A DNA stretch of 64,000 nt from Naegleria gruberi (Eukaryota). Under the pieces are notes generated by a model. It was not told where the DNA came from and made no database searches. It saw only the letters and a program-made list of their open reading frames with translations. Numbering within the stretch: the stretch's first letter is position 1; every line of letters starts with the position of its first letter. The stretch is from assembly GCA_000004985.1 (NCBI GenBank), contig GG738869.1; one strand, written 5' to 3'. Positions 1 through 64,000 of this stretch are shown one piece after another. The position numbers were made by a program, and so were the translations under genes.

Positions 1-424
1 CCAAACCCAAACCCAAACCCAAACCCAAACCCAAACCCAAACCCAAACCCAAACCCCAACCCAAACCCAAACCCAAACCCAAACCCAAACCCAAACCCAA
101 ACCCAAACCCAAACCCAAACCCAAACCCAAACCCAAACCCAAACCCAACCCAAACCCAAACCCAAACCCAAACCCAAACCCAAACCCAAACCCAAACCCA
201 AACCCAAACCCAAACCCAAACCCAAACCCAAACCCAAACCCAAACCCAAACCCAAACCCAAACCCAAACCCAAACCCAAACCCAAACCCAAACCCAAACC
301 CAAACCCAAACCCAAACCCAAACCCAAACCCAAACCCAAACCCAAACCCAAACCCAAACCCAAACCCAAACCCAAACCCAAACCCAAACCCAAACCCAAA
401 CCCAAACCCAAACCCAAACCCAAA
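1..424. repeat. Telomeric repeat tract, (CCCAAA)n on + strand = (TTTGGG)n G-strand; left chromosome end
   Basis: About 70 tandem hexamers start at base 1. Two variant units are present (CCCCAA near 52-57, CCCAA near 146). The C-rich strand reads 5'->3' into the chromosome, the orientation expected at a left end. The tract ends abruptly at 424 into unique sequence. Confidence 0.9.
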
Positions 425-4973: not shown

Positions 4974-5618
4974 ATAGATGATAAGAATATAATCAATGAT
5001 ATGAATCTTCACTAAGTAATCTCTTAAATAACCCAAATAAATCAACTCTGAATCCTAACCAAACCCAAAGTCTTCTTAAAAGAAACATGGTTTTCAGTTG
5101 TGTGGATTTTTTTAAAGATGGAAGAAACTGTTTCTTGTAAGCTTACTCAACTTTTAAAGCAACTCACGATGAGAAATTATTGGTGGTCATGTCATTGGTT
5201 CTAAATGGTATCTGATATTTAGGAGTCAGATTAAATAAGTGCAAGTTGATTGTATCAAGAGAAATTATAATCTCTTTGACGGCCATAGTCAAAGGACAAG
5301 AAACATGACAGTCTGATTGGCGTTTCATTAACAGTCACCAATCATTTAAAGGATATTTGAAAAAGAAGCAAAATTGAAACTGATCTAATGATTTTTTAAC
5401 TGTCATTAATCCAACAGTAAATAACAGTGAAACTTCATATATTTTACAAAATGTTAATCCAATGAATCAACTTGTGTAATCTTAATGTTATTCACAGTTC
5501 AGAATTGTAAAGTGACCAAATTTGATTTTTATTTAAAATCAAAACTTTAATACAACTTTAACGGTACCAATTTACTGTTTGTTGTGAACTTTCCAGCGTC
5601 GTAGACGATATAATGTGC

Positions 5619-25729: not shown

Positions 25730-28700
25730 TTAAGCAAATGGAGCCCAACAAACAACACCTAGAGTGGTAGTTGTAGCAGCAGCTGTAGTCCACCACTTGT
25801 TAGTTGGAGCAGTGTAAACATAGTTAGCATAAACAACAGGACCAGAGCTTGAAGTAGCAAGATAATCAGTGAAAGCAGCAGTTGAAGTACCATCATCCCA
25901 AGTACCAGCACCAGAAGTATATGTCATTCCGAGAGGGAAGGTAATTGATTCAGCAGCTGGTAATATTGTTTGAATGAAAGTCTTTTCAGCAGCACTTTGA
26001 ATCATTACGAGTTTGGCATCCGATCTCCAATACTTGCAAATATCAGACATTACACTCTTGGTGTAGCCTGAAACAAACTTGGTGTAAATATAACAACGAC
26101 CAAGAGTGGCACTACAAGCAGTCTTACGAGCTGCACTATTTTCAACATAGGCTGGTGGTTGTGGATTGTATGGAGCAATAACACTGGCTGGACCCTTAAT
26201 GGTACCAGTAGCATATTGTGAATCTCCGAAAACACCAAAGGAAATGGAATCTTCTGTTACATCACCTTCAACAGTCAATGAGTAGGTAAAGCTTGAACCC
26301 TTAGCAATTGTGTAGACTCCTGGAGCACTTTCAAAGGAGAAACTGTCCTTGTTGGTAATTGGTTCTACACCTAGATAGACAGGGAAGTATGGATTGTAAT
26401 TATAGAAGGCATCTTGATTATAACCAGAGGCCATAGCCAAAGAGAACTTCTTGACACCACTTGGAGCACTTGATGCAACAGCAACTGTGTAATTGAATTG
26501 AGATCTGACCCAATTGGTAGACAAAATATTCTTGATAACAGATGTAGTCTTTCCCTTATAAGTGACAGTCATACCACTGTTTGCAAGTGGAACCAAAGTC
26601 TTGGTTTGGGAAGATGTGACTGTGTTACATGAGTTATCTACAACCAATTGGTAGACATTGGCAAGATTATTCCAATCGACATAGAGTGGATTGTTGGTAT
26701 CATAGTTCATTCTTTGAATTTGAACTTTACCCAAAGCACTTGTCAAACCAACACCAATACCAATAGCTAATTGTCTCCAATTCCAAATACCAGTACCAGC
26801 ATACTTGCTAACTTCAGCATTTGTGGAAACACCAGGAGACCAGGAATTAAGATCTGCTGATCTCAAAGTAGCTTCAGAACATGGATTACATCTACTACGA
26901 GAATCATTCCAAAGGCAGTTTGAGCAGTTCATTCCAGGGAATCTGTTTGATTTACAATAATTTGGAACAGAACCATATCTGAGAGGGTTGGCAGAGAAGG
27001 AGCTAGTACATCCACTACAACTACAAGGTTCTGTGGATTCACCGTCAGTTACGTGAATAATCATCTTGTTTACGATACTCTTTCTACCATAGCTTACCAT
27101 TTGGTCAATAGCAGCATTAATACCAGCAATTGAACCAGTTCCTGACTTTAATTGGGAAGCAGAGCTAATCTTGGACAAGACAACATCAACACTAGTACCA
27201 CTGTTAACTTGGAGGTGAGTAGTAATGCTTGAGGCAAACTGAATGATACCAATGTTTGTTCCAGTTGGTGAGATGTTGGAACCGAATCCCCTAGTAACGT
27301 TACCCATAAAGCTCTTCATCTTGATCCAATTTTCATCAGAAATAGAACCACTACCATCGAGGACAAAGATAATGTCCATATCAAGAGAACAAGTACAACT
27401 GGTGTATTGAACTGTTACAGTAGCACTTGATGAAGTACCATCTTGATCAGAAACAATAGTATATTCGAATTGGATAGAATCACAACTGTTGGCAACTGGT
27501 TTCACTCTAATAACTTGACTATTAGCAGGATCGTTTGGATTCAAAATAGTTGGAGTACCACTGGCACAATATCCAGTTGGACATGAGATACTAGCAAACT
27601 TGAAAGTACCACCAAGAGAATCATAATCGTTCGACAACAAGGTACTAACAGAAATGTCAACTTGGGCATTATACTTGGTAGAAACTACGTCATTGACAGC
27701 GATTGGAGGAGAAGCAAGAGGAGTAATAGTAATATTTGCAGAAACAGTAACTGGAGCATCAACATCACTATCGCTAACACCAACAATGAACCAACAAGAT
27801 GAACCAACAAAGGTTGTTTGTCTGAGGAAGCTAATCTTATTGGAGACAACAGAGATTGAAGAAACCAGAGTAGAAGTACAGGTACCTGTGTTTGTAATTG
27901 AAGTAAGCTTTAACTTGTCAGCAGTGTCAGCATCATAAGCATTAGAAACAGCCAAATAGTCAATAGTTTGTGCAACGTTGGTAGCTCTGCTTACAGAGTA
28001 AATATGGTTATAACTTGGAGCAACTGGAGCAGTATTTGGTTGATTTACGATAATCTTACAAGAAACTGTTTGACCAGCAGTATTAGAATAAGAATAAGTA
28101 GCATAACAGTTATCATTGATGCAGGAACGAGTACTATCTGCAGTATAAGTCCACTTGCTTGAAACCTTTGCAATTGTACCAACCTTAAGATTTGCAGTAG
28201 AGACAAGATTGATAGAGGCTGGTTCTGAGCCAGAAACCTTTACGAGAGCCAATCTCAAAGAATCTTCGAATTGATTAGCAGCATCATTCTTAGTGGCAGA
28301 AATGTAATAGTCGATACAGTTGAGAGCTGAACCAACAATGTTGATTGTATAAATGTAAGATGTTGTGAGTTGACCGTCTGTGAGGTAAACGTAGAATTGT
28401 TGGGTACCAATGAAAGAATTTGCATAAGTAAACTTGACTGATCCGTCAGTGTTCAAAACTACAGATGTACCAGAATTTTGATTTGGCAAGAGAGCAACTG
28501 AGGCAACAGTGACAGAATCACCATCAGCATCACTAGCACCAACCAAGAGATTGTTCAAGATTGTTGTTGGATTTGAGTAATTTCTAGTAACATTGGCAGT
28601 CTTGGAAGTACCTTGTGGTGGAGTATTGGTAATTGTAACAGAAACTTGTCCTGAAGTACTGAGTGGACCATCAGTACAAGAATAAGAGAAGGAATCAGAG

Positions 28701-31700
28701 ACAGTGTAAGCAGATCCATCACTTGGTGTGTTGGTGTAGGTGATAGAGGTAGATGGTTGATATGTAAAACTACCCAAAGAAGAATCAGTAACAACAACAC
28801 TTCCCAATGAACCTTGAGTAACACCAGAAAATGTGAGAGGATCACTGTTTGGATCAGAACACTTTGAAAGAATATTAGTGAATGAGGCAACATTTCTCCA
28901 CAAAACAGTAGCTGAAGTTGATTGAGCAGATGGAGCATCATTTGTATAAGTAATAGTTACAGTAACAAAGCTTGAAGTAGTAACTGAATCACTAATAGCA
29001 TACTTGAAAGTATCAACACCAGCTCCAAGAGCAGAATTATCCTTGTAGGTAACACTCTTCTTATCAGCACTTAATGTGAGAGAGGCAGATCTAGTAGATG
29101 AAACACTATCAATACTGCTAATGTAAATATCATCACCATTGGTATCGACATCATTAGCAAGTAAATTGAGAACAAGAGTCTTATTTCTCCAGTGTGTTGA
29201 GTAAGTATCAGCAACAGCAACTGGAGCAGTGTTAGTGAGTGCAATAGAGACAGTTTGGGTGACAGTTTGAGCGCCATCTGTAATCTTGAATTGGAATGAG
29301 GTAGAAAGAACTTGATTAGCAGGAGGAACAAACTTTACAACACCACTACTGACAGCAGTGAGAGTACCAACAGCTGGTTGAGAATAGTATGACACAGAGA
29401 GACTATCACCATCAGCATCCCTGGCATCAGCTAGCAAATTAATATTGAAACCAGATTGGACATTTCTCCAATGATTACTAAATGTTTGATCGCTTGATGT
29501 TGGAGCATAATTTTGGAGATTAATAGTTACAGTTTGAGTTGCTGAGCTATCAAGACCATCTGAAACAGAATAAGTGAAAGTTTGTTGAACCAAGTTGCCA
29601 GTTGGGTTGACAAAAGTAAAGGTCTTCTTATCACCTGAAAGAGTGAGTGTGCCAACAGATGGAGTTGTGAAAGCATTAACAGTCAATTTGGTAGTATCAG
29701 CCGAGTCACTATCGGTTGGTTTAAGAGCATCAGTTCTATCAATAATTGGAATTGTAATAGTATAGTTACTAAAGTGGACAGTAAGAGGAATATTATAAGC
29801 AACAGGAATACTATTACTAATTACAATTGGGAATGTAGCACTAGAGGCAGTCCAACCGTCAGTGAAAGCTACTGTGAATGTATCAGTTCCCTTCCATGGA
29901 GAAGTTAACTTGTAGGTAACTGTATTGGATGACCCAAGAACAACGGTACCTTGATTACCATTCTTTGTGATGGAAGTAACATTAACAGCATCATTTTCAG
30001 CGTCAGTGAATCTGGAATTCAAATTAATTGTTGCTGTAGTGTCATAAACAGCTCTCCAATGATAATTGAAAGCTTGAGTATCAACGGATGGAACAGTGTT
30101 GATAACAGTGACTGAAATGGTTCCAGAAACTGTTTCCTTGCCATCAGATACAATGAAAGTAACAGTATCAACCTTTCCTACAAATCCACTAGTTGGAGTG
30201 TAAATGATATTACCACCACTCTTAACAATAGTACCTTGAACAGCAGGAATGGTACTAAAGCTTGAAATAGTGAGAGAATCACCATTACTATCACTTGAAC
30301 CACCAATAACATTGAAAGTAACACCAGACTTGGCAACCTTCCAAACAACGCTTGAAGTATAACTAGTGGTTGTTGGTTTACTATTGGTTACAAGAATGAA
30401 AATCTTACCAGTGGTTGTGGTAACACCATCAGAGATAACATATGTCAAAGTATCATTACCAAGAGGAGCAGTATTTGGATAGTAAACAATCTTATTGCCA
30501 CTAATGATTGGAGCTTGTGTTGCCAAAGAACCATAAACTGAACTAATAGTGAGTGGATCACTTTCAGCATCAACATCATTGGCCAAGGCATCAATAACAA
30601 TAGAAGCAGTATTCCAGTGAACAGAGAGATAATCACTGTTAGCAACTGGAGCAGTATTAGTAACTTTGAGTGTAACAGTATTACTAACATCACCATTTGA
30701 GGCACCATCAGTAACTACATAACGGAAAGAGGTTGTACCAGTAAAGGTAGAACCTGGTGCAGAAATAGTTACAGAAGTGGTATCCTTTCTTTGAACAGTT
30801 CCTGATGCAAGTTCATTAACAACAGACTTTAAGGAGATTGGATCAGAGTTTGGATCAGCATCAGCTGTTGCCAAGGCAAGGACATTCAAATCAAAGCTTC
30901 TATAATTTCTCCAAGTAATTTCATATGATTTAGCAGAAACAACAGGAGGAGTATTAGTAACTTGAACAGTGAAAGAAGCAGTAGCATTCTTCAATCCATC
31001 AGATACAATATATGTTGCTTGAACTGTACCAATTGTTGAGGTTGGTGTGTAGGTGGCAACATTTGAAGCAATTGAGAGAGAACCAACTGGAACACTACCA
31101 GGATAGGTTGTCAAATAACCACTATCGGCACTATCCGCATCAGCAATTAATGGACCAAGATTGACAGTAGCAGTATTTCTCCAGTGAACTGGAGTAGAAG
31201 CAGCTTGAGCAGTTGGAGCGTTATCATAGACGTTCATATAGAAAGTGAGAGAACTGGTACCTGCACCATTATTATATGAAAATACGAATTTTTCTTCACC
31301 AGTAAAACCAACAGCAGGTTTGTAATTGAAATTCTTCAAGTCATCCAAAACATTTACAGTACCTCCCTTGTTTGGAGCAACGTTCAAAATCTTGTTCAAT
31401 TCAAGAGTACCGTATGAAGTGATATTATCAAAAGCATAGAAATCTTGTCCTACCAAACTCTTTCTCCAGTGAACATCAAAGTATTTTTCTTCAGCAGATG
31501 GAACAACACTTCTAATATCTACAGTTACAGTAGCAACAGCTGACTTAATCAAACCGTCATAAATTTGATAAGTAAAAGTATCAATACCAGTTTGAGTAAC
31601 CAAAGCAGGAGATGGGAAGTACTTGATCTTCTTATTGGAACTATCAATGGTAACAGCACCAGAACCAAATCTTGTTGATGCACCAACATTACTGACAACC

Positions 31701-34700
31701 AAATATGCAGAATCATCAGTATCAGAATCAGTTGCCAAACTAACAGCCTCAATAGTAATACCTGTTTGAACATTAGCACCATAGTATGTAACTGAAATAT
31801 CAGCAGCAGTTGGTGGGTTGTTGTATGAGGTTGTAGTTAAGGTCTTTGTAGAGCTATCCAAACCATCGGTCAATGTAGCAGTACAAACAGCAGTTCCAGT
31901 AAAGCTTGAAGAAGCAAAATTGACAACTTTAACAGCTCCAGATGCAACTGTAGAACAACCAGTACCTGTAACAGAGAGAGTGAGACTGTCACCATCACCA
32001 TCGGTTGGAGTATTGTAAACATTATAAGTAACACCACTAGCAGCAGTTCTCCAGTGAACAGTTTGAACTTGAGCATCAATGTTTGGTACATTGTTATTTG
32101 TAACTGTAACAAAAACAGTGGCAGTATTTGAGTTCAAAGCACCATCAGTAGCCTTATAAGTGAATTGATTAACACCAGTAGTAGGAGAAGAACCAAGGGT
32201 ATATCTAATAAGATTATTATTCTTTTCAATGGTACCTTTGGCAGGTTGAGTGAAAGTATCAACTGAGAGGGTATCAGAATCAGCATCAACATCATTAGCC
32301 AAAACATTAATGTCGATATTAGTAGATTTCCAGTGAACAGAGATGGTATCATTACTTGCAACAGGAGCATTATCCTTAATAGTTACATAAACAGTAGATG
32401 TACCTTGCGAAATACCATCAGTAATAGTGTAGGTGAATGAATCAGAACCAACAAATCCTTTAGTTGGAGTATAGATAGCTTTGCCGTTAGATTTTAAGGT
32501 TGAACCAGAGGTAGCTGAGGAAACAGATTGAAGACTGATAGAATCAGAATCAGCATCTGTGCATCCAGACAAAACATCAATAGTAATACCAGTTGACCAT
32601 ACGGACCAGTGAGCTTCAATATTCTTAACTGTTGCTGTTGGAGCAGTATTCTTAACAGAGACAACAAATGTACCTGTCTTACTAACCCAACCATCAGTGA
32701 ATTTAGCAGTGAAAGAGGAATCACCCAAAACTGGGCTATCTGGAAGAGTCCAATTAACCTTATCGGAAGAAATACTTGGAGTACCATAAGTAGTAGCACC
32801 AGTAGTCAAACTGAATGTAATAGCATCATTATCAGCATCAGTTACTGCAGATAAAACATCAATCAAGGTAGATTTTTGAGTCCAATGAATATTGGTTGGG
32901 AAGACTGTAACAACAGGATCGTTATTCAAAATGTTAATAGTCCAGTCAACTGATTTAGTCAACAAACCATCAGTGAAAGTAATAGTAACAATACTTGCAC
33001 CAGTATAACCTTGTTGACCAACAAAAGTAACCATATTACCAGAGAAAGTTGCAGAGCCACCAACATTAACAGAAACTGTCTTGACAGTTACAGTGTCTTC
33101 ATTGTCAGCGTCATTAGCACCACACATTACGACAGCATCACGAGTATAACCAGAAACAACTACGTCAAAGTGCTTGTTTTCAGTAACAGCATTAGCAGTT
33201 GGTGCTTGATCATAGACATTAAGATTGACTTGAACTTGAGAAGTACTAGCACCATCAGTAATGGTTACATTGAATGTATCAGCGCCCAAATAATTGTTTT
33301 GTTGAGTGTATTTGACATTTGGAATTGTAGAAGCATCACCGTTATTGATAGCAACTGAACCCTTAGAAGGAGTTGAAGTTGAAAGAATTGAGAGAGAATC
33401 TCCATCAGCATCGAGCGGTTGAGGAGTAGAGAACATATCAATAGTGGTACCACCAGTTTTTTGAGTAGACCAGTGAATATTCTTATTAATGACTTGATCT
33501 TGAGGAACATTATTATTGGTAACAATAAGTGTAACAGATGAAGAAGCACTCTTGGTAACATCATCGGTAGCAATATAGGTAATTTCTTGCGTACCAACAG
33601 ATGCAGCAACAGGAGAAAAGACAATAGCCTTTCTTTGAGCATCAATAGAAACTGATCCCTTGAAATCAGCAGCTTTGCTAACAGTATCAACAAAGAGAGC
33701 ATCATTGTTTGGATCCTTATCGTTTGCCAAAACATTCAATTGGTTATCACTTGACTTCCAGTGGAAAGTATAAGAGTCAGCAACTGGAAGAGGAGCATCA
33801 TTTCTAAGAGTGACAACAACATTGGCAACAGTTTCCTTTCCATAGTCAGAAACAGTGTATGTGAAAGTTGTTTCACCAGAATACTTTTCAGATGACTTGG
33901 ATGTGAAAACAAGAGCATCAGTACCATCAGCAAGTTGAGTACGAGTAACAACACCCTTTGATGGTTGAGTGAAGCTAGCAATATGAAGTGGGTCAGAATC
34001 AGCATCAACATCATTTGACAATACATTAATAGTAACTGAAGCATCATTCCAGTGAACAGAAGCAGTATCATCAACAGGAGCTGGAGCAGCATTAGTAACT
34101 TGCACAGTGACTGTTCCTTGATTTGATTCATCTAAGCCATCAGTAGTAGTGTAAGTAAATGTAGTGGTACCAGTGAAACCATTGTTTGGTTTAAAGAGAA
34201 CCTTTTTACCACCTTCAAAACTGGAAACTTGACCAGCAGTTGGTTGAGTCAATGTCTTGATAACCAAAGTATCATAATCACCTGGATTGATATCTTGGTC
34301 ATTATTCAAAACTTCAATAACAACACTTCTATTCCAAGATACAGACACAGCATCATTGTTAGCAATAGGAGCATCATTGACAACATTAACAGTGACAGTA
34401 GCATAATTAGAGAGAGCACCTTCATCATCAACAATAGAATAAGTAAAGGTGTCAACATATGTTTGGTTGAGAGCAGCATAGGTAACAAATCTGTTATTTG
34501 GTGAAATGTCAACAGTAATACCTTGAGTAGAAACAGTTGCAAGATCATATTGAATAGCATCACTATTTGGATCATAATCATTACTGATCAATTCAAATTT
34601 ACCAACTAAACCCTTAGAAACTTTAACAATATCGTCAACAGCAACAGGAGCGATATTTTTAACACCAACAATCAAATAACCAGTTACAGTGAAAATGCCT

Positions 34701-36285
34701 GTAGTTGATCCATCCTTGTTAGAATTTTTAACCTTGTATGGAGCAACATCGGTACCAGTGAAATCAGCTGGAGGAGTATAAGTCACATTCTTATCATCAA
34801 TCTTCTTGATCTTACCACCATTTTCAGTGGACAATTCATCAAAATCGAGCAAGAGATAATCATTGGAAGCACTATAATCATTAGCAACAACATCAACAGT
34901 GATTGGAACATTCTTATCGCACAAAACAGTATCATTAACAGCAACTGGAGCGACAGGAATAACATTAATAGTAACAGTACTTGTTACTGTATCAATATCA
35001 TCAGTAATTCTAAGCTTGAAAGATTCACTATAAATTACACCATCTTCAGGAGTGTAAACCATGGTATAACTATTCTTTTTAACATTGTAAAAATCTTGGG
35101 TTGGATAATTGACTTGAGTAATTGTGGATTGTTCCAAGAATTGGAAGGTACCACGAGTTGGCTTGGTCAACAAGGAAACGGTAACAGTATCTAACATATC
35201 AGCATCAGTGTATGTCAAATCCAATTGGTTATCCTTTGAATTCTTTGGAACATTGAGAATTCTATCAGCATTATTTGGTGGAGTATTGACAACTTTCAAG
35301 AAAACATAACTGCTTGAAGTAGTTGGACCATCAGTAATTGTATATTCAAAGGCATCAGTCAAAGCTTCAACCTTTGCAGGTGGAATGTAACTGAGATAGG
35401 TAGCATCTGAGGAAGTGATAACAGTACCAGCACTACCAGTACCAGATGTTGATGCAACAATAGTAATATTATCACCATTAATATCATAATCATTTTCCAT
35501 AACTCTGAGGATAGTCTTGGCATTCTTTGGAACAGTGTAAGTATCTGGATCAGCAACAGGTGGATCATTTTCAACATTAATAGTAATGAGAGCACTAACA
35601 ATAGCATTACCATCAGAAACGGTATAGTTGAATTGATCTTGAGCATTGAAACCATATTTTGGAGTGTAGTATACATATTTAGTGTCAAAAGTAACAACAG
35701 CTTCTGGAACTTGAGAAGCTGTAATACCAACAACAGTCAATTCGTCATTATCTGGATCAGTAATGAAAGCACCGTTATCAGTAACATAAGCAAAAATGTC
35801 AATACTGTTCTTTTTGCTATTCTTACTAACAGTGAGTGTAATATCAACCAATTCAGGTGGACGATTCAAAACTTCTACATGAACATTTGCTGAAGAAATC
35901 ATATAACCATTAGTTACATAATATTGGAAGGTTTCATTTCCAGCAAAAGAGCCTTTTGAAGTATAAACTAGTGTCTTACCATCCTTCAAAGAAACTGTAC
36001 CAGAAGTAGGTTGAGTAACGTTAACGAGAGTTAAATTCAATGATTTTGGATCAGCATCGTTAAGAAGTGGATATATTGTGATTGGGTAACGTTTGTAGAC
36101 TTGAATATAATCCTATTAGTTGTGGGTATTCAGAAAGTTGACATTTAGACATGCATGAATATAATGATGATAAACACAACAAATTCGAAATACTATGAAT
36201 TACTTACGTCTTTTGCGTCAGGAGCAGAGACTCCAGCAGAGACTGTAACCATGACAATAGTAACAACAACACTCGCAACAACCAT
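25730..36285 (-). CDS. Giant secreted adhesin-like protein (about 3,480 aa): signal peptide, about 25-30 tandem cadherin-like/Ig-like (VCBS-type) repeats, vWA domain, C-type lectin-like domain
   Basis: Exon 1 is 36218-36285 (MVVASVVVTIVMVTVSAGVSAPDAKD, hydrophobic signal). A 105-nt intron at 36113-36217 follows (GTAAGT...AATAG). Exon 2 is 25730-36112, a 10.4-kb uninterrupted ORF ending at TAA. About 100-aa repeats carry PVAxxD / VLxNDxDxxxDxL / TYTxxDG motifs. The vWA reads DIIFVLDGSGSIS...IHVTDGEST (MIDAS DxSxS). The C-terminal region has CTLD-like Cys/Trp spacing (CSATLGRCYIYTK...WDDG...VVCWAPFA). Confidence 0.8.
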
Positions 36286-52578: not shown

Positions 52579-53757
52579 TTGATTTCAAATTGTGTACACA
52601 AAATGTTCCACCATTCGGATGCAATGATTGATGGTGAGGATGTTAATATAACTCCTATTGAGAAGGTATTATTTTCTTGTCATGGCGAATTTATGAAAAC
52701 TTCTTCCTCTGCAAGGCAATTGGATTCTTCATCATCAAATATAAATAATTTTCTAATTTATTATGAAATGGATTTAAATAATATTAAACAAAAATTGGAA
52801 GGAAGCGAATGTGATGAATTTAAAGTGGAAAAATTGCTTTTTAATTTGACAAATCGAGTGAGGATGATGGTGAAGGATTGGGACAAGCCTTCGGAACATT
52901 ACAGAGTACCTTTTTATCATTATATTGTTGGGAATCCATATCAGTTGCCTAATTTAATGTTTTTTAGAAAGTTGGTGATGGAATCGAATGAGTTTATTGA
53001 GGATTTAATTCTGGAGAATCTGTCATTGTCAGTTTTTAGGCAAATGTTTGAAGTTGCTTGTAAATTTACCAAGGAATATTACAATTTTACGAGTAGGAAG
53101 AGTTTTACCTTGTTTATGAGTCCTACTCCAATTGTAAATTTTATTAGAAATTTGTTGAAATCATTTGGATATGATTCAATATTGAATGGTTATTGTAAAG
53201 CTGGAAATTCAAGTCAATTACTCGCTTTGAAATGTGAAAGTGTAAATTTATGTGGAATAATCTCAAATGATCTATCAGAACAAACTGAAGAAGAGTGGAA
53301 GAATTGCATTCTTATTCCACAAATAATGCAGAGAAGAAACAAGCATGGTCACTTTGAAGATTCACTTTCGTTTATCATTCATGGACAATCAATTTCATTC
53401 TTCTTTACCAATTATTCACTCTCGAGTTCTATTTATCATTTCAGGACAAATTTCATCAAGACAATGAACATGAACAATTTGGATGATATAATTGATCTAA
53501 TTGGTTTATTATGGTCCTATCTGATGACTGTTCTGATGCGAAAGAAGGTTCCAATTCTATTGGGATGTGATGTAAATACATTACTCCCACTTCGATACAC
53601 TATTCTACTCTATCACATGGACAGTAAACTAAAAAAGAAGGAAGAAGAAGAGCCATCCATACTCAATAGGAATGATCAAAGAATTAAAAAGAAATCCCAG
53701 AAATCTGACATTGCAGACAAGGTCAGGAAGAGTTTAAAAAAGGCAAATATGTTCTAG
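52579..53757 (+). CDS. Hypothetical protein (392 aa)
   Basis: Long clean ORF. No motif recognised. Confidence 0.45.
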   Translation: MISNCVHKMFHHSDAMIDGEDVNITPIEKVLFSCHGEFMKTSSSARQLDSSSSNINNFLIYYEMDLNNIKQKLEGSECDEFKVEKLLFNLTNRVRMMVKDWDKPSEHYRVPFYHYIVGNPYQLPNLMFFRKLVMESNEFIEDLILENLSLSVFRQMFEVACKFTKEYYNFTSRKSFTLFMSPTPIVNFIRNLLKSFGYDSILNGYCKAGNSSQLLALKCESVNLCGIISNDLSEQTEEEWKNCILIPQIMQRRNKHGHFEDSLSFIIHGQSISFFFTNYSLSSSIYHFRTNFIKTMNMNNLDDIIDLIGLLWSYLMTVLMRKKVPILLGCDVNTLLPLRYTILLYHMDSKLKKKEEEEPSILNRNDQRIKKKSQKSDIADKVRKSLKKANMF

Positions 53758-53769
53758 TAGAATACACCA

Positions 53770-54168
53770 TCAAGAGTTGGGATTTATCTTGGAGTTTGCC
53801 AATTGACTAACCATCGATTGGAATAATACATGTTCAGGTAAACTCTGAAAATCTGTAAATCTAGAAATCAACATTCCAAACAAGACATTCACTTGGTCTG
53901 AAGAAGTTGCACAAAACTCATTCCAATCATTCAACAGACGTTTTTCAGCTTCAGGAGAAAGAACATGTGCTTCACTAATCTTTCGCTTTTTGTTATCTTG
54001 ATAACTAGTAGTAGTAATTGTATCGTTATCATTATTGACATACTCTCGTTTTCCTACCGAATTAATTCTGTCATCATCATAACAATCTAACGAAGAAGAA
54101 GAACACATATCAGTGCGCTGCATAATATTTTCTTCAGAGAATTGTTGTTGGTTTGGTTGTTGAATCAT
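53770..54168 (-). CDS. Hypothetical small protein (132 aa)
   Basis: ORF only. Confidence 0.25.
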   Translation of the reverse strand: MIQQPNQQQFSEENIMQRTDMCSSSSLDCYDDDRINSVGKREYVNNDNDTITTTSYQDNKKRKISEAHVLSPEAEKRLLNDWNEFCATSSDQVNVLFGMLISRFTDFQSLPEHVLFQSMVSQLANSKINPNS

Positions 54169-54640
54169 GTTGTTGGTTGTTAGTTGTGATTTTTTTTTCG
54201 TTCTGAATGCCTGAAGTTTAGGAGATGGACCATTTGGCTGTCACAAATACGGTTTTAGAAAAGCTTATTTCTAAATTGGTATTATAGAAAATACAATTAT
54301 ATCTCCTCGGTTTATCTAAATATTGACCTGTGTGTCGAATTGAGGAGGTTTATGAACCTACGCAGCTGAGCAAGTTATTTATTTTTGCAATTAGGAAACA
54401 CAAACAAACATTCAAGAAACTCTTTGAGTTGCATTGCAATTATTGTAGTAGTTATTACACTATTAACTGAATAAAATTGGTTTCCATCTGGTACGATTAT
54501 TAATATAATAGATCAAAATCATCATTAAGCAATATGACATCGGAACATGATTATAATAATCTCACTTATTAAATCACCACAATGAGATAATTAATTTTAA
54601 TTTCATTAGATAGAAGACGAGGATGAAAAGATTCTACTTT

Positions 54641-54835
54641 GAAGATATATATCCAGATCTATATGTTACTGACTCTTCTGGTAAGACCTTTTACATTGAT
54701 GTCGATGCTAACACCTCTGATGCCTAACTTTTCTCTCAAGAATGCTGGAAAGGTCAATATTAACCTTAACATGTTGAAGGCTGGTGATGAAGTTGATATC
54801 TTTACAGTTATTCCATTACATTTATTGTGGATACG
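54641..54835 (+). pseudogene. Internally deleted partial copy of the downstream PPC-domain gene (three collinear segments)
   Basis: atccagatctatatgttactg matches 55863-55883. tctggtaagaccttttacattg...tctgatgc matches 56898-56945 at about 85% identity. gaatgctggaaaggtcaatattaaccttaacatgttgaaggctggtgatgaag is 100% identical over 53 nt to 57062-57114, with divergent flanks. The junction between pieces 2 and 3 falls at a TACTTTTC direct repeat. Confidence 0.75.
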
Positions 54836-55289
54836 CACAAACATACATTTAAGAAACTTTTCGAGTTATATTGATAATCATTTAATATTCTAAAAAATTA
54901 AGAAATGGAAAGAAGAGGATGAACAGAAGATAGTTGGCCGTTACTTTGAAGAAAATTTAATCCTTTGATTTGCACATGGCTCATGTATCAACTAGGATTT
55001 AAAAGACCAAGAAATCAATTTGATTGCATAGTTACGCAGCCGCGACTCTAAGGTTTTGTTAAGAAACTATTTTTAAGAGTATTGAATTTTCCAGACTTCC
55101 TTAGTTTTCCTCAAGTTAAATACTTGGCCGAGACACATGCCGTGTGATTGATACAATTGTCTTAAATAGACAAAACCTACATCATTTCTATATTCTATCC
55201 TACCGTAATCTACCGCCCCTCAATGTAGATTCAATGGAATGAAAATTGTGTCAAAAGACTCACCAGTACCAAAAAATTAGCCTTAAAAA

Positions 55290-58200
55290 ATGAAAGAACT
55301 GCTATTAGCTACTATTGCCATATGCTTATTTTGCTGCTCTCTTGTTTTTGCTCAGAATACCGTCATTAAGTATGATGTTTCTGGTAAGAACGTTTCAAAG
55401 ACCCTGATAAGGGGAGAAATTCAATATTTTCTCGTTGATGTTTCATCGTGGGGTTGGAAAGAAGGAGATTTTGTTACCCTTAGTTTGAATTCACTCTCGG
55501 GTGATTGTGATATGTGGATTAGCAGTGTTGACTATCCAAAAACTGCTTGTGCCAATTGCCTTGGTCCAAATGGCTTTGGTGATGTTCGAATTATATACTA
55601 CAATTCCACTGAGAATGCACAGGGTGTTTTCTATGTTGGAATCATTGCTCAAGAAAGGAGTGCTGAATTTACTTTTGTTGCTTGGAAGTCTAATGGTAAG
55701 TTTTGATTGTTCAATTCCGAATGACATTAATTAGAAATTATCAATATTAACAAGAATGAAATTATCTTTGCTCAATCCCCAACTGGAAAGAAGAATACCT
55801 TTTTATTCAACATTCCAAGCGAAGCCAATTTGATTACAATCAATGTTGATGGTATCTATGGCGATCCAGATCTATATGTTACTGGTTCTAATGGTGATTC
55901 ATGGGCTTCTGAGAATTACGGATTTGAGACTTTGAAGATTAAGGCTGTCCCAGGACTGACTCAATTGAAAATTACTATTGTTGCCGTCTCTGATACTGTC
56001 TATAGTGTAGTTATCAAAGTCAATGACCAATCTGTGCGTTTACCAGAAGGTATCTTCTCACCAATACTGTCAATGCGAATGAAATGGATACCTTCATGTT
56101 CAGAAGTCTTGAAGCTGTTCAAAATATATTTGTTGAAATTAAACACCCCAGTAATGAAGAGGGAGAAACCAAGTTATACGTTCGTAAAGGAGCTATACCA
56201 ACTAGCAGTGAATTTGATTATGTCATTTCAGGTGAGGGTACATACACTGTAGCGGATGCCACTGTTGGTGATTACTATTTTGGTGTTGTTGGTTTGATGA
56301 ATAATACCAACTATAAGATTTGGGCATTTGGTGAAAACCAAAATCAAGTTGTTCTTTTCACCAGTCAACCAGTGCAAAAGGCATTCACTGCTACCACAAA
56401 GTCTTACACTTTCAAGTATGCCAATAACGATCAAGCCAAGACCATTGTTGCTACTGCGAAGCTTGTTTCTGGATCCTCAATTAATGTTTATGGAGCTCAA
56501 TTCTCTAGACCTAGTTCCACAAAGTACCATTCTAAGGCTGTTGCAATCACTGGTGCCGATGGTGTCTTAAAGTTTGTTGCTCCATCTCCACGTCCAAACA
56601 TTTACTTTACTGTTGCTGCTGATTCTGGTGAATTCTCAATTGAAGTCACCACTTCTCAACCAATCATGGCCCTCAGTGATGGTGAAGAAGTTTATTTGAA
56701 TTGGGTTCCAAAGGGATCATACAGATATTTCTCCTTTGTTGCTGATAAGTATCCAGAAAAGGCCATCTCCATCACTGCCCACCCATTTAGTGGCGACGTT
56801 GGTGTCCAAGTTTCAACCATTCTTCAATATCCATCTGTTAATAGTAACCAATGGTTTGCTAAACACACTGTTTACATACCAGCTCAAGATTCTAAGGCTT
56901 CTGGTAAGACCTTTTACATTGGTGTCCATGCTTTCACTTCTGATGCATACTTTTCCATATGCGCTTCTCAAGTCAGAGCCATAATGCCTCTCTCTGAAGG
57001 AACATCAACCTCAAGTTCTGTTATTGAAAGAGAGTATGCTTACTTTTCTCTCAATATCAAGAATGCTGGAAAGGTCAATATTAACCTTAACATGTTGAAG
57101 GCTGGTGATGAAGCTGATATCTTCTACAGTTATTCCGTCAAGACACCAAACAGATATGATTATGAAGGGAGATCTATTAATAATGGTAAGAATGTTTTGA
57201 CCATTGAAGATGCCAACCCAGGAGAAATTTACATTTCTGTTTTTGGTATTGTTTCAACTACTGATAGTACCACTAAAGCTATTCCATTTACTCTCTCAAT
57301 TGCCACTGATTATTTGAACTTGTTCCCAAATGGAGATACTGCTCTCGTCAATTCTGCAAAGGGTACTATTACTCATTTCAGAACTAACATTACCAGCGCA
57401 TTGAGGATTATCACTGCTTCTGCAACCCTCATTTCTGGTAAAACTGCAATGTACATCTCCACAAATGGAGAAAAGGCTAGTTTTACCAATTTTGTTTGGT
57501 CTGACCAAAATACGAATGGTAATAGCATTGTTATCAAGCAAACTGACCTTGCCTTTAGACGTGGAGTTTGTTTTATTGCAATTCTTGCTATTGAAAACTC
57601 TGTCTATCGCATGTCATTGGCTAGTAATATTGGTGCCACAGTTTTGGAAAACATTCCAACACTTGGTAGAACTGCACCTGACGGAAATATGGAGTCTTTG
57701 ATTTATAGTTTCTCATTCAATGACTCTTCTAAGGATGTCTATCTTCACATTAAGGAATTGGAAGGAAAAGTTGATGTTTTTGTTAATCAAAACAATTATA
57801 CATCAGAAAGAAATTACACTTGGAAGTCTCTTTCTAATGGTGAAATTGCTAGAGGGATCACTCTCAAGAAGGAAAGTCTTGTTGTTGAAAAGGCTGTCTA
57901 TGTTTCTGTAATCGGTAAGGATCAAGGAAAGAGCTCTCTGTTCTCTATTGAATTCAGATATATGGCACCTCCAGTCAGTAATATTACATTCAAAGTTCAA
58001 ATAATTTCTCCAAATAATCCAAATCTTCAAAAGATTAATCCTAATGAAGATTTAATTTTAACAAGTGTTATTGAACCATTACCAAATGAAATGTTCTCCT
58101 ACAAATGGGTAATTCCAATGAATGACATTGAAATAACAAAGAGTTATATTGTCATTCCTAAACATTTACTAACAAGTGGAATTTCATTTTATATAACTTT

Positions 58201-58399
58201 AGAAATTACAACAACAAACCAAGAAAAAAGTACAACCTTTATTAACGTTAAAGTGAATGAATCTCCAAAATTGGGAGAGTTTGCAGTTTCTCCAAAAACT
58301 GGTTATGTTTTAGAAACTCAATTTAACTTGACAGCAAATAACTGGTATGAAAATGAACCTGTGACTTATCGATTGTGTATCGATATGTTGGAGATTTAA
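55290..58399 (+). CDS. Secreted protein with multiple PPC (pre-peptidase C-terminal, bacterial-type) domains; at least 3 exons
   Basis: Exon 1 is 55290-55695 (signal peptide MKELLLATIAICLFCCSLVFAQ, then a PPC-like domain with GDCDMWIS). Intron is 55696-55734 (39 nt, GTAAGT..TTAG). Exon 2 is 55735-56068 (TINVDGIYGDPDLYVTGSNGDSW..., classic G-D-x-D-L-Y-V). A candidate 35-nt intron sits at 56069-56103 (weak GTCAAT..CAG). Exon 3 is 56104-58399 with further PPC-like units (GETKLYVRKGAIPTSSEFDYVISGEGTYTV, NAGKVNINLNMLKAGDEADIFYSY, KELEGKVDVFVNQNNYT). Confidence 0.6.
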
Positions 58400-59724
58400 C
58401 ATGGAAAACTCTTTCAGAACAATCATCTCAAAGATCTTTGACAACTTCATTACCTTTTGGAAATATTGAATTAGCAGTGTTTATTTATGATTCATTCAAT
58501 TCATTTACCCAATCACAAACTATTTCAATTCAAGTGCTTCAAAAATCAGAATTTTCAAATGAAGTATTAACTACATTAGAAAGCGAAACATCACTCTCGC
58601 CACCAATTCTCGCAACTCTGTCAACAATAATATCAGATCAAAATATACAGGTCAAGGAAAGGGTGATTCGAATAATTTCAAACTATTTTACAAAACAATT
58701 AGATCTATTGAGAAGTAATAATATAACTACTAATCAATTAAGCTCCATTGCTTCAACTATTTCATCTGTTAGCACATCAATTTCCCATTTAGATACAAAC
58801 ACTAAAACTGTTATTTTGGATTATTTTTCAGGTACATTGGAAAAAGTAGCAAGTAATAGTATTCAACTTTCAGATAATGATTTCCAAGTTTGTTTATCAT
58901 CAATTTCAACGATGGAAGAGCAAACAAACAGCATAGTTCAGAAATATACTACCAAGGTGATCAAAATTTACAAACTACTTTCAGATTTTAAATTAAGATC
59001 CTTATTAGAAGATGGTTCTCCGTTTAAGATTTCTGGTAAAGTTTACAAATCATATTCAAAATATGTAAAGAATTACTCGGCACTTCAAGATGTTCTCTAT
59101 GATCAAACTGAAATTACTATGAATCCACTTCAAATTCCATCATGTATTGTTGGTGTGAAAACATACACTAATGAATTATTAAGTAGTGATTTCAAATTCT
59201 CTCAAGTTATAGAATTTACTCTTCAAAATGCTAACACTTTGCAAAATATTGATCTTGGAGTGAACTCTAATTTATTATCACAAATAACATTCCCTTATAA
59301 TTCAAGTGCAGTTTCTAGAAAGTTAACATTACAGACCACTCATTGCAAATATCAATTATCGACAGGAGATTTTGTGGATGATCATTGTACTTTGCATAGC
59401 AATGATGATGGCACTTTATCTATGAGAATTTCTAGAACTGGAATTTTTGTTATTGGATATCAAGAAACCAAAATTGAACCTACTCAATCGGTTCATCCAA
59501 CTCAATCAGAATCTTCAAATATTCCATTGATTATAGGATTATCTATTTTCTTTCCTGTTACATTTATTGTGGTTGGCATTATTTTAATATTGGTATTTTA
59601 CTTATTAAGGAGAAATAGAAATGTGAAATCTAAAATCAAAAAGACGTTCGCCAATATTAGGGATGGTCAATATCTTGAAAAGTTTGAAGATTCAAAAGTC
59701 GAAATGCAAGAAAGTACTTGTTGA
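58375..59724 (+). CDS. Probable C-terminal continuation of the PPC-domain gene: extracellular region, one TM helix, short basic tail
   Basis: ORF frame is offset by +2 from the ORF ending at 58399. No signal peptide of its own. TM is IPLIIGLSIFFPVTFIVVGIILILVFYLL followed by RRNRNVKSKIKK. I could not find a canonical intron that joins the two frames. Confidence 0.45.
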   Translation: MYRYVGDLTWKTLSEQSSQRSLTTSLPFGNIELAVFIYDSFNSFTQSQTISIQVLQKSEFSNEVLTTLESETSLSPPILATLSTIISDQNIQVKERVIRIISNYFTKQLDLLRSNNITTNQLSSIASTISSVSTSISHLDTNTKTVILDYFSGTLEKVASNSIQLSDNDFQVCLSSISTMEEQTNSIVQKYTTKVIKIYKLLSDFKLRSLLEDGSPFKISGKVYKSYSKYVKNYSALQDVLYDQTEITMNPLQIPSCIVGVKTYTNELLSSDFKFSQVIEFTLQNANTLQNIDLGVNSNLLSQITFPYNSSAVSRKLTLQTTHCKYQLSTGDFVDDHCTLHSNDDGTLSMRISRTGIFVIGYQETKIEPTQSVHPTQSESSNIPLIIGLSIFFPVTFIVVGIILILVFYLLRRNRNVKSKIKKTFANIRDGQYLEKFEDSKVEMQESTC

Positions 59725-59898
59725 TTTCATTGTGCAATATGTAATGAATATTCAAGATATTAAAAGGAAATTCCTCAATGTTATAGATCAATTAAACTAT
59801 TGCTTTGAAACTTAAACTTCTATTTTTGTAAAGAGTATTGTAAAATATTTAAACATTTAGTGGTTTCCAAGTTCCAATCAAAACTCTCATTTAAAAAA

Positions 59899-62800
59899 AT
59901 GCCAGAAAATCAAAGCGAACAAGGTGAGAACAATTCGCCACTAATTACATGGCTTAAAGTTGTGTTTCCATCTGGTATGAATAATAATAGATCATCAACT
60001 TTGGAACATTATGCAAATTCTTCACAGTACGCTTCGGAACATGATGAGGATCATCAGCAGCAAGAAATTATTAAATCACCAACAATTAATTCGAGTTTGA
60101 GTTTGATTTGGTTTAGTGGTTTGCTATTGGAGAATGATCATCATTCAATGCTGGTAGTTGAAAGCTTTACGGAAATGGCCAAGTTAATTAAATCATCATC
60201 AGAAGATTCATCAACAATATGTGAGGAAATGTATTTTGGATTATCGGAGGAGGGAAAATACTTTATTCATAATAACAATAATAAGAACAATAAGAAAATC
60301 GATACGGAATCCAATAATACCAACACTAGCCTATTTGTAAATCCTCCTCCACTCATGATGAAAAGTTCTGTCAATTCTTCCCTGCTTGGAAAACCAACCT
60401 CCTCATTGGAGACATTTATTTATTTATTTTCATTATGTTCACTATGCAATGCTTGTTCGGAGGAAATTTTCAACAACTTTAATGAAATAGTGCAGGTAGT
60501 AGAATATAGTTTACAGGATGTAAATTGTCAGAATGACATTTATTGGCAGGAGATTTATAATAATATTTCTGCCGATTCACAATCACTGATCATATTGGGA
60601 AAGTTTATTTGTGCAATTTTTCCTCATATTCAGATTTTAAACAAATCCAATTCGACTATACTGTTCGGTCACATTTGTAGATGTTGGACTAAACAAGTCG
60701 TGAATAATTCGAGTGAAGAGTTGTGGAAATTATTGGCCAGGTTTTTATCATATCCCGAACTCTCTAGGTATTACTTTTTTACCAATTCAGAAATTGGTCA
60801 TACTACTAGTGTGCTATTGGCAAATTACACGATTGACATTTTAGATAAGGACCATTATTGTGATGATAGTAATTTTACACTTTCAGAGAAATTCGAGCTC
60901 TTCTTGAAAGTATTTAAAAACAAATTCCTCACATCAGATTTCAAGGAATCTTCAGAGATTTACGAATATTGTAAATTATTTATTGATACAGATACATTCA
61001 AGGAGGAACATTTCGAGCTGTATCTAAGATTCAAAGCAGAAATGGAATATATTGTCATATTATCGCCTCCTTTTGTATCATATTATAGAGCTATAGAATA
61101 CTTGTTGAATTTAGCAAATCAAGTCGAGGAGAGTAAGGAAACACTCTCAGAGAATGTATATATCTTCCTCAAATCTCAAATTATTTTACACAAACTAAAG
61201 AAGGCATCAACCTTTGAAATATCTGCCGAGTATTACTCCCAAAAGGATTATTTGATTACAACCTTCAAGAAGGAATTGGAAGATTTGGTTGATATCAAGA
61301 ACGAATACTTCACTAAGGGGTATTTGAACCCATTCATCATACATATACTTTCTCCTGGCAAATTAATGCGCAATTGGCTGCTGGTTAACAATAAGAATAC
61401 TCTCTCAAAAATTCAACATTACAGCTCTCTTGCTGGCTGGTACAAGGAGAGAGGAAATTGTGTCAAACACAGAGAGTACCTCCAAAAGGCCTACTCTCTC
61501 TTCCAATATATTAATATGAGAGATTGGATGAATAATGGAATATTTGAAGTGGCCGAGAGTTTGGTATCTGCTTATGCCTCTGAAAGTCTTCCTCCTTTTT
61601 TCAGCAAAAAGCTATTGATTGAATTGGAGGCATTGTGGAGTGGATTGGACTCAACTAGAGAGCTATACTTTCCTGGAGCCTATAAAATTCTCATCAATTT
61701 GAAAGCAAGTCTATGTCCAGAAAAAGAGAGTAGAGAAATTCTTGACTCTGCCATATCTTTATTCAAATCTGCACTTTGCCTGAGAAAGGACAATTATGCA
61801 ATTGAAGAGAATCCAAATTATGAACAAATTCTTAAATATGGAGGTGAAGATAACAAGAAGAAGGATACCTCCGCATATCAAGTTTACATTTCTCTCATCA
61901 AGGATCATGCCAATACCTATTCCAAATCAGCTCCTAAAGTTTCACTTAAAATTTACAGGAACCTTTTGATAGAGAATACTGTCAAGCATGACCACTGCTC
62001 CATTAGATTGTTTATTCTCTCACTGTTCTCATCATTGAACATGCAAAATGACATGATCCATTTATGTGACCAACTCTTTGAGTATTATGGAACATATCCT
62101 GTCGTAAAAATCAGATGCTATCAATACTTGGCTGATTATTACAAGAGAAAGATCAAGTTTTCTACTCTTCTTTCAGAAGAATTACAATTAATTGAAAAAT
62201 CTCTACTCAACCTGACTGGTGCTGTGGAAGTTTTGAAAGAAAACGACTTGGATACTTACTCTTCCCTATCAGACTTTTTATTGTGTGCACAGACAGCATC
62301 TTCCCTATATTCAAGTTTTAGTGATCGAATCAAGAAGGATGTCAAGTGGGAATCTTTCGAAAAGTCCCTTTCAACAATATTTGAAGACCTTATTGAATTC
62401 TTGAAAAAGTTTGACTTTTCTAATTGTATTTCCAAAAGTAATATCGATTTAGTCCAAAGTATGTTTTCAATACTTTCAGGTGCTATGGAATTCTTGAGCA
62501 CTTCCCAATTGAAGACCATTCTTCTCAAGGCACTTCTACTCTCAGAGAATATCAAACCAATTGTTAACATTTACAATAATTCCACGATTATGTATGGATT
62601 TTATGATATTCTGATTCTCTCCAACAAGTTCTTTTCTCAGGTTGAAGAACCAGTTGTTAAGGAAATTAACTATGAAAAAAGAGACTTATTGGGGTCAATT
62701 TTTTCTGTGGATGAGGAAAATACCAATTTTTGGAACCACATGATAGAATATCCAGAGGATCAGTTTCCAACATTTTTGGAAATTGAGTATGGCTTTTTAA

Positions 62801-64000
62801 ATTTCCTATTGGAGGGGTTTCAACATCACGGAGTATACAAATCTCTCATCTATAAGCAAATATTTGATATCCACAGAAGAAATAAGAATTGCACAAAAGA
62901 ATTATTCCTCAAGCATCTCGAATCATGGAAAGAGGTTGCAATCGACTCAGACACTAGAAGACACTACCCAACTCACATTCTTGATTGTGAACTCTATGAG
63001 AATTTTACCAAATTCAAAACAAAGGGAGATTTGACACTCACCAGAATGAATATCATTACCGATGTTTCCTCTATTGATGAGACAACCAAACAAAGAGTAG
63101 TAAGGGATTTGTCAAATGATATATTCTTCCATGAAAAGTTTTTACAAACCGTCTCAATGATTCAATCTTATGAAATGATACTTGCCATCAACTTGAGACA
63201 AGTGGATTTATTCTCTAAAATTCCTACCAGCTTTTGCAAACTAAGAGCACTGAGATCTATCCTATTTCTTGAATCTGTGACTGGAATTAATGGACTCAGT
63301 GAACACTTTTTCGAAAGAGTGCAACAAATTCAAGTCTCAGACGATCTCATTGTCAACATTGGATGTGGTAATGATGATAGAATTTACATTTATGCTAAAA
63401 TTGAAGGTCTCGATTTGAATTATGATGTCATTACTGAAGATAGAGTCAAGGTAATGGAAAAATTATTGGAATCATCATTCTTTGGATTTATGGATATATA
63501 CAGTGAAATTGATTACTTGTCGTGTGGTTTGAGTGAGGATGGCTCCATCTATTTGCACACATACTATGAACTGAAGACGAGCTCCTTCTCCAAACTTCTC
63601 TACACCCTTCAAACCTTCATCAAGAATGCAGAAAATTGGAAGAGTGAGGTATTTGAATTGATATCCAAGAAAACCAAACATACTAGTGCAACCAACATTA
63701 GAGAACGTATCTTTAATACTCGATACCTAGCCACACACAACACAAAGAAAAAGTATGGTTTGAGCAAGGATCAAGGTACTCTTGTTGAATCAATCATTAC
63801 ACTGATTGAAAAGAAAGAGGAGGAATCTAAAACACCAACCCACGAAAAGCAAGACGAAAATGAAATGCTCGAAGTATTCACAGATAGTACCCTGGAAGTG
63901 TTGGAATCATACCTATCCAACTCAACACAAGATCTCTACGATGGAACTCTTCAAAAGTATAAGGCTAAGGAAATGATTGAAAATAGTTTGAATGCTCTGT
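59899..64000 (+). CDS. Large hypothetical protein, N-terminal at least 1,367 aa (continues beyond window end)
   Basis: From ATG at 59899 I read no in-frame stop through position 64000. No competing ORFs are listed on any frame in this 4.1 kb. It is absent from the ORF track, presumably because it has no stop inside the window. No domain recognised. Confidence 0.55.
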   Translation, partial: MPENQSEQGENNSPLITWLKVVFPSGMNNNRSSTLEHYANSSQYASEHDEDHQQQEIIKSPTINSSLSLIWFSGLLLENDHHSMLVVESFTEMAKLIKSSSEDSSTICEEMYFGLSEEGKYFIHNNNNKNNKKIDTESNNTNTSLFVNPPPLMMKSSVNSSLLGKPTSSLETFIYLFSLCSLCNACSEEIFNNFNEIVQVVEYSLQDVNCQNDIYWQEIYNNISADSQSLIILGKFICAIFPHIQILNKSNSTILFGHICRCWTKQVVNNSSEELWKLLARFLSYPELSRYYFFTNSEIGHTTSVLLANYTIDILDKDHYCDDSNFTLSEKFELFLKVFKNKFLTSDFKESSEIYEYCKLFIDTDTFKEEHFELYLRFKAEMEYIVILSPPFVSYYRAIEYLLNLANQVEESKETLSENVYIFLKSQIILHKLKKASTFEISAEYYSQKDYLITTFKKELEDLVDIKNEYFTKGYLNPFIIHILSPGKLMRNWLLVNNKNTLSKIQHYSSLAGWYKERGNCVKHREYLQKAYSLFQYINMRDWMNNGIFEVAESLVSAYASESLPPFFSKKLLIELEALWSGLDSTRELYFPGAYKILINLKASLCPEKESREILDSAISLFKSALCLRKDNYAIEENPNYEQILKYGGEDNKKKDTSAYQVYISLIKDHANTYSKSAPKVSLKIYRNLLIENTVKHDHCSIRLFILSLFSSLNMQNDMIHLCDQLFEYYGTYPVVKIRCYQYLADYYKRKIKFSTLLSEELQLIEKSLLNLTGAVEVLKENDLDTYSSLSDFLLCAQTASSLYSSFSDRIKKDVKWESFEKSLSTIFEDLIEFLKKFDFSNCISKSNIDLVQSMFSILSGAMEFLSTSQLKTILLKALLLSENIKPIVNIYNNSTIMYGFYDILILSNKFFSQVEEPVVKEINYEKRDLLGSIFSVDEENTNFWNHMIEYPEDQFPTFLEIEYGFLNFLLEGFQHHGVYKSLIYKQIFDIHRRNKNCTKELFLKHLESWKEVAIDSDTRRHYPTHILDCELYENFTKFKTKGDLTLTRMNIITDVSSIDETTKQRVVRDLSNDIFFHEKFLQTVSMIQSYEMILAINLRQVDLFSKIPTSFCKLRALRSILFLESVTGINGLSEHFFERVQQIQVSDDLIVNIGCGNDDRIYIYAKIEGLDLNYDVITEDRVKVMEKLLESSFFGFMDIYSEIDYLSCGLSEDGSIYLHTYYELKTSSFSKLLYTLQTFIKNAENWKSEVFELISKKTKHTSATNIRERIFNTRYLATHNTKKKYGLSKDQGTLVESIITLIEKKEEESKTPTHEKQDENEMLEVFTDSTLEVLESYLSNSTQDLYDGTLQKYKAKEMIENSLNAL

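Follow-up and report, generated by a model that had tools for sequence, protein, structure and literature searches.

How does a gene come to have a scrap of itself lying just ahead of its own start codon, and is such a scrap, once there, of any use? The question is raised by a short tract of Naegleria gruberi DNA (the relic) within the whole 64,000-nt stretch analysed here, which we call the window and which is eukaryotic in character (32% GC, with short GT..AG introns and a scaffold gap). The relic sits in an unannotated, divergent intergenic region of 1.1 kb between two consecutively numbered genes: NAEGRDRAFT_67753, which is exactly a 132-aa open reading frame (ORF) on the minus strand (53770-54168), and NAEGRDRAFT_67754, which we refer to as the parent. 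Its 3' end falls ~455-475 nt before the parent ATG at 55290, by the end coordinate chosen, in agreement with the ~450 bp of the original prediction. That prediction had suggested a decayed tandem duplicate, shortened by microhomology-mediated deletions and possibly patched by gene conversion, and we find that six collinear pairs of segments, the abutment of the two sets, a broken frame, neutral substitutions and uneven divergence all bear it out. In other words, the relic is, very probably, the non-functional remnant of a head-to-tail tandem duplication of a gene for a PPC-REJ membrane protein.

The argument begins with homology. BLASTN of 54500-55000 against the window returns three matches to the downstream gene, which are collinear with it and share its strand: 54651-54682 with 55864-55895 (+ strand, 87.5% identity, E 1e-5), 54675-54733 with 56898-56955 (+ strand, 88.1%, E 9e-15) and 54724-54814 with 57039-57136 (+ strand, 90.8%, E 9e-34). 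These reproduce all three of the source pieces first proposed, and the alignment, whose failure on recomputation was to count against the proposal, holds. At the level of protein, pieces 2 and 3 find the parent product by tblastn with E 8e-12. Similarity to a paralogous gene that is this significant (E 1e-5 to 9e-34) is the first thing one asks of a duplicated pseudogene. The longest exact block shared by relic and parent is 57 nt; its exact identity had been noted correctly, and its length had been put at 53 nt. This 57-mer has exactly two matches in the 64 kb when up to three mismatches are allowed and none in 100 shuffles. The neighbours of the block are diverged, as had been said, and are 87-88% rather than ~85% identical to their sources.

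Could the pieces have come from somewhere else? A self-comparison of 53000-64000 against the whole 64-kb window yields no further copies of any relic piece. A protein search (E <= 1e-10, top 8000 word-sharing candidates) finds the encoded relic peptide in no other N. gruberi protein and, within the same limits, no close N. gruberi paralogue of the parent. The parent product has 98% identity with the predicted N. gruberi protein XP_002676889.1 (P0001), that is, NAEGRDRAFT_67754 itself; its other matches, Logan and JGI records without an N. gruberi label, do not exceed 29% identity. Within those limits, then, nothing else among N. gruberi proteins is similar to the parent, which leaves the neighbour as the one plausible source. 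Pfam recognizes in its product the REJ domain (PF02010, 2.4e-21) and the PPC domain (PF04151, 1e-6), and the best PF04151 match, at residues 570-640, is where piece 3 starts.

Three pieces packed into ~195 bp, as originally described, are indeed present, and that description of the extent is incomplete: there are a fourth piece and flanking non-coding repeats besides (Table 1). The 21 nt that follow piece 3 contain a 15-mer that matches parent 59558-59572 exactly (score 15 vs 9.2 +/- 1.0, 0 of 300 shuffles, in a search targeted at the parent downstream of piece 3), and we add it here as piece 4, collinear with the other three. Outside the pieces lie two pairs of direct repeats. The first, X and X', is 84% identical over 38 nt by BLAST (E 4e-6), with a local score of 28 against 13.3 +/- 1.7 for shuffles (0 of 300); in an unbiased scan of the 64 kb, it is the sole such pair, scoring 29.5 against a background maximum of 18-21. 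The second, B and B', with a gapped local score of 17 against 13.0 +/- 2.2 (equalled in 20 of 300 shuffles), is marginal alone and is collinear with the chain. Both copies thus have in common the order X, B, piece 1, piece 2, piece 3, piece 4, and the left set ends at 54830, just 5 nt short of the start of the right set at 54836, that is, head-to-tail.

Table 1. Coordinates in the window of the relic, its partner segments and the parent gene
Feature	Position	Strand	Description
X	54399-54437	+	first element of the left, decayed copy (non-coding direct repeat); partner X'
B	54596-54647	+	second, weaker direct repeat, left copy; partner B'
B sequence blocks	54596-54647		contains GAGGATGAA and TACTTTGAAGA
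Piece 1	54651-54676	+	= parent 55864-55889, codes ..DPDLYVTGS..; 24/26 identical
Exact 21-mer in piece 1	54651-54671	+	
Piece 2	54677-54726	+	= parent 56900-56948 (..SGKTFYIGVHAFTSDA..); 42/49 identical plus a 1-nt insertion
Piece 3	54727-54814	+	= parent 57042-57136, where the best-scoring PPC domain starts
Piece 3 lesions			1 substitution (88 nt); deletions of 6 nt and 1 nt
Perfect 57-nt block	54736-54792	+	inside piece 3, = parent 57057-57113; candidate gene-conversion tract
Piece 4	54815-54830	+	= parent 59557-59572, transmembrane segment ..VTFIV..; 15/16 identical
X'	54836-54874	+	opens the right, intact copy, 5 nt past the left copy's last piece
B'	54881-54952	+	right-copy partner of B
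Parent promoter region	54953-55289	+	directly after B'
NAEGRDRAFT_67754 (parent)	55290-59724	+	signal peptide, PPC-type repeats, REJ domain, transmembrane segment, short tail
Parent 13-nt repeat, left member	56943-56955	+	ATGCATACTTTTC; both members ATGC[A/T]TACTTTTC
Parent 13-nt repeat, right member	57036-57048		ATGCTTACTTTTC

Two further candidates were set aside. A third X-like copy, seen by eye near 55035-55095, gives local alignment scores within the range of the shuffles, and an extension of piece 1 leftward to 54636 covers a stretch that the B/B' pairing (TACTTTGAAGA) explains better. Each member of the B pair holds GAGGATGAA with an ATG; that of the relic opens a 34-codon ORF (54623-54727) that runs in the native frame through pieces 1 and 2, and that of B' opens a 4-codon ORF only (54910-54927), ~370 nt upstream of the parent ATG.

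Adjacency, common strand, collinearity, duplicated non-coding flanks and a head-to-tail junction are together the marks of a tandem duplicate, in this case of a unit of ~4.74 kb (54836-59572) whose left copy now measures 432 nt (54399-54830). In likeness to the unprocessed duplicated pseudogenes known elsewhere, the relic is adjacent to, collinear with and co-oriented with its parent, its flanking non-coding DNA was duplicated along with it, it is truncated, frame-broken and startless, and its substitutions are spread evenly over codon positions. It differs from them in being unusually collapsed (~190 nt, in four islands, remain of >3.7 kb of coding sequence) and in that all of its internal junctions happen to keep the native frame. 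A processed pseudogene can be rejected: the upstream segments X and B were duplicated too, the location is adjacent to the parent and piece 4 is followed by no A-run (ATACGCACAAAC); no piece spans an intron. On this last point, the original prediction, in which piece 1 spans an exon-intron-exon region of the parent, fails, because the source of piece 1 (..GDPDLYVTGSNG..) lies wholly within exon 2, and the sole clear intron of the parent (39 nt, GTAAGT..TTAG, 55696-55734) is 130 nt upstream of it, as the annotated gene model and our own agree.

What, then, became of the rest of the copy? Missing from the relic are a stretch of 911 nt, which takes in the promoter-proximal region, the ATG, exon 1 and the intron, and, between the successive pieces, stretches of ~1010 nt, 93 nt and ~2420 nt. 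The clearest of the junctions is that between pieces 2 and 3, where a breakpoint on a direct repeat had been predicted and where we find a 13-nt direct repeat in the parent at both sites; its two members, 93 nt apart, match at 12 of 13 positions, and the relic has one hybrid copy of the repeat, with the intervening 93 nt gone. Pieces 1 and 2 join at a TCT repeat and pieces 3 and 4 at a TTCC repeat, and five unmatched bases (ATACG) precede X'. This is how deletions between short direct repeats, by slippage or by microhomology-mediated end joining, leave their junctions, with the repeats (the 13-nt pair at 12/13, TTCC and TCT) present at both parental sites, although here the mechanism is read from the junction sequences only, and no intermediate alleles turned up.

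One might propose instead that a single template-switching event (of the FoSTeS or MMBIR type) stitched together stretches of the neighbouring gene and of its upstream DNA and that a full-length duplicate never existed. The shortness of the pieces (16-95 nt), the microhomologies of 2-13 nt, the 5-nt filler at the last junction and the location of every template within 5 kb all suit such an event, but strict collinearity on one strand holds for all six segments, and the right set begins almost directly where the left set ends; such an outcome is automatic for duplication followed by deletion and is not required by template switching. The pieces, moreover, differ significantly in their divergence (as we describe below), which does not fit a single uniform history unless conversion is invoked as well, and we regard the proposal as unlikely.

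The tandem duplication that we prefer can be set out as a series of events, whose order, like the mechanism of each deletion, we infer. A segment of ~4.7 kb, reaching from X (~455 nt upstream of the ATG) into the transmembrane-coding region, would have been duplicated, and the upstream of the two copies would have been unable to make a complete protein. At least four deletions (911, ~1010, 93 and ~2420 nt) would then have cut that copy to its present length, each joining short direct repeats or microhomologies, in the manner of replication slippage or of repair guided by microhomology. The deletions would have been followed by small indels and neutral substitutions, and piece 3 would later have been overwritten, by a short gene-conversion tract, from the neighbouring parent.

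The disabling lesions are plain. With no native start and >95% of the coding sequence gone, the relic is truncated and frameshifted: a +1 insertion at 54725 gives rise to the stop TAA (54725-54727), a -1 deletion follows 77 nt after that insertion and there is a 6-nt deletion besides. Of the 15 substitutions, 4, 5 and 6 are at codon positions 1, 2 and 3, respectively, and 10 are non-synonymous, a neutral pattern relative to the parent, although the numbers are small; they look like neutral decay. One feature of the copy is less expected of a dead gene. All three internal deletions keep the native frame, once the two frame breaks of the parent (discussed below) are allowed for, an outcome with a probability by chance of ~1/27; the copy could have been under selection for a while, or the deletions may have occurred between repeated motifs that were in phase. 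With its two small indels repaired, the relic reads as a single ORF of 83 codons, from the ATG in B to the TGA that X and X' share.

Not all of the relic has decayed to the same degree. Pieces 1 and 2 together have 9 substitutions in 75 positions (12%) and X/X' has 7 in 39 (18%), whereas pieces 3 and 4 have 2 in 104 (1.9%). The difference between pieces 1+2 and pieces 3+4 gives a post hoc Fisher p = 0.009 (0.001 with X added), and the perfect run of 57 nt has, given 20 events in 207 columns, a likewise post hoc P = 0.024. A segment that is closer to its donor than its own flanks are is the signature of gene conversion, and the explanation that we find most likely for these figures is that piece 3, with its 57-mer, was overwritten when the parent, which lies 2.3 kb away, donated a short conversion tract. 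The tract resembles the short-tract ectopic conversions that occur between a gene and a neighbouring pseudogene, being 57 nt long, bounded by an indel and a mismatch and set in surroundings that are ~12% diverged; it differs from them in that the conversion is deduced here, with support that is moderate and post hoc (P ~0.02 and 0.009). The perfect identity takes in synonymous sites, which argues against constraint at the level of the protein.

There remains the second half of our opening question. Might the relic, or the 57-mer within it, have been kept because it does something, whether as a regulatory RNA (siRNA or antisense), as a cis-regulatory element in a shared promoter region or as a small ORF? 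We believe that there is hardly any chance of this. In its favour, the perfect block is longer than expected at the probability just given, the relic lies in the divergent promoter region between two genes and Naegleria species encode Dicer and Argonaute homologues (PMC13315211). Against it, the relic is co-oriented with the parent, and a sense transcript of it would therefore be unable to pair with the parent mRNA; neither the 57-mer nor the relic folds, on either strand, better than shuffled sequence (z = +0.4, -1.9, +0.8 and +0.6); no Rfam family matches within the relic; and the relic ORFs (34, 76 and 61 aa) are absent from ~15 billion proteins, with no annotated gene covering the relic. 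Identity that extends to synonymous sites is, furthermore, an outcome of gene conversion, and the remainder of the relic decays neutrally. An inverted arrangement or a stable hairpin, from which double-stranded RNA with the parent might be had, was looked for and is not what the locus offers, since the orientation is direct and the folds are not significant. The original suggestion of an antisense or regulatory role for the perfect block is thus left without support in orientation, fold, Rfam match or known product. Like the pseudogenes that give rise to endo-siRNAs or antisense RNAs, the relic does have a perfect stretch in common with its parent, and this is the sole likeness; unlike them, it is direct rather than inverted, it is without a predicted hairpin and it is known here from its sequence alone.

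A more specific version of the same idea can be stated, and we consider it very unlikely. The 57-mer might be kept because the divergent promoter region is transcribed into RNA that matches the parent mRNA, or its complement, and that tunes expression of the PPC-REJ surface protein by way of the RNAi machinery of Naegleria. Alternatively, the relic might have been a mini-gene of 83 codons that was expressed up to the time of two recent indels that compensate each other, to judge from its in-frame junctions and from the coding-like end of X'.

That coding-like end brings us to the most puzzling property of the locus, for which a second, N. gruberi-like isolate provided a comparison. The isolate, represented in the metagenome ERR1078381 (PRJEB11402), was reached via the protein cluster of the neighbour. 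Two of its contigs, L001 (1-1846) and L002 (1-1321), are 98.4% identical to the window over 52676-54576; both cover X, and they end, short of the relic, at 54515 and 54576. (The outer 20 nt of L002, an unaligned tail, are an Illumina adapter left in the Logan contig.) Beyond this isolate, scans of JGI metagenomes with peptide patterns and exact DNA came back empty, and no contigs that encode the parent or the neighbour as annotated are on record. In the isolate, X reads ..TTGTATTGA.., and two differences from X' that are specific to strain NEG-M drop out. The remaining X/X' differences, with the states of the isolate used, number 5; all 5 lie at the same codon phase (P = 0.007), and in the frame HK[Q/H]TFKKLFELY*, which runs in phase out of piece 4, 4 of them are synonymous; X and X' are identical at 34 of 39 positions before their shared TGA and at 9 of 21 after it. 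Differences with a period of three are not predicted by a simple duplication of upstream non-coding DNA, and they hint that X-type sequence was formerly the 3' end of a coding region and that the locus has an older or more complex history.

How far can one follow that hint? It might mean that there was once an older array of at least three PPC-REJ genes with C-terminal ends of the X type (..HK[Q/H]TFKKLFELY*). X would then be all that is left of one of these genes, the fragment with X' would belong to another and the identity of pieces 1-4 to the parent would be due to conversion. Such an array would account for the phase and the synonymy of the X/X' differences, for the end of similarity at the shared TGA, for the frame that enters X' from piece 4 and for the 83 codons of the repaired relic. 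Its difficulty is that, when one looks for the other traces that it should have left, they do not appear. X and X' score 17 against the tail and 3' end of the parent, below random places in the window (18-21), so that the homology of X to the stop-codon and 3'-UTR region of the parent must be rejected, in spite of a targeted test that gave 4 of 500; the similarity of the left flank of X to the transmembrane segment is not significant, and X cannot be extended as a relic of that region either. A permissive tblastn of the parent over the whole 1.1-kb intergenic region recovers the known pieces only. X contains no ATG-initiated or intact ORF, and in the second isolate there is a stop just upstream of it. 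Among the distant homologues P0002-P0005 (22-29% identity), we find no tails of the X type. An array of this kind requires more events than one duplication does, and we think it distinctly unlikely.

If the relic is indeed the remnant of a single tandem duplication, it represents a familiar outcome of duplication followed by decay. At most, it is a neat case, so far unannotated, of the loss of a tandem duplicate from a compact protist genome, by large deletions joined at short direct repeats and then by small indels, with a probable short conversion tract from the surviving gene. The literature on pseudogenes, tandem duplication, small RNAs and telomeres in Naegleria gave general context only. 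Annotators would do well to mark the relic as a fragment of a pseudogene.

The annotation of the parent also merits re-inspection. The assembly shows the parent frame broken twice by -1, in short homopolymers near 56060 and 58372, and the annotated model hides these breaks behind implausible introns: one of 35 nt (GTCAAT..TTCAG, 56069-56103) at the first break and one of ~330 nt (58376-58704) at the second. Between them, these introns take out residues that are conserved in PPC and REJ, and the Pfam match to REJ passes straight through the second frame break. No such breaks interrupt the other long ORFs of the window, of 10.4 kb and 4.2 kb. It may be that the parent became a pseudogene in NEG-M only very recently, or there may be a local error in the sequence; if the frame breaks are real, both copies of the gene are dying in this strain.

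A few observations concern the surroundings. Within the coding sequence of NAEGRDRAFT_67753, at 54004-54087 on the minus strand, there is a sub-threshold Rfam match to the C/D-box snoRNA family RF00526 (28 bits against a gathering threshold of 50, E 0.028), which is probably due to chance. Positions 1-424 of the window consist of 70.8 copies of CCAAAC with 99% matches, (GGGTTT)n on the other strand, and they look like a telomere-type repeat at the scaffold end; if that is what they are, the gene and the relic lie ~54-60 kb from the end of a chromosome. Next come a minisatellite of the TGATGATA type (668-745) and a gap of N (~950 to 5000). On the minus strand, 25733-36112 is one uninterrupted ORF of 3460 codons, and on the plus strand, the ORF at 42869-44638 matches the Peptidase_S13 (D-Ala-D-Ala carboxypeptidase) domain over its full length (E 1.5e-57); this enzyme, of bacterial type in a eukaryotic genome, was likely acquired horizontally.
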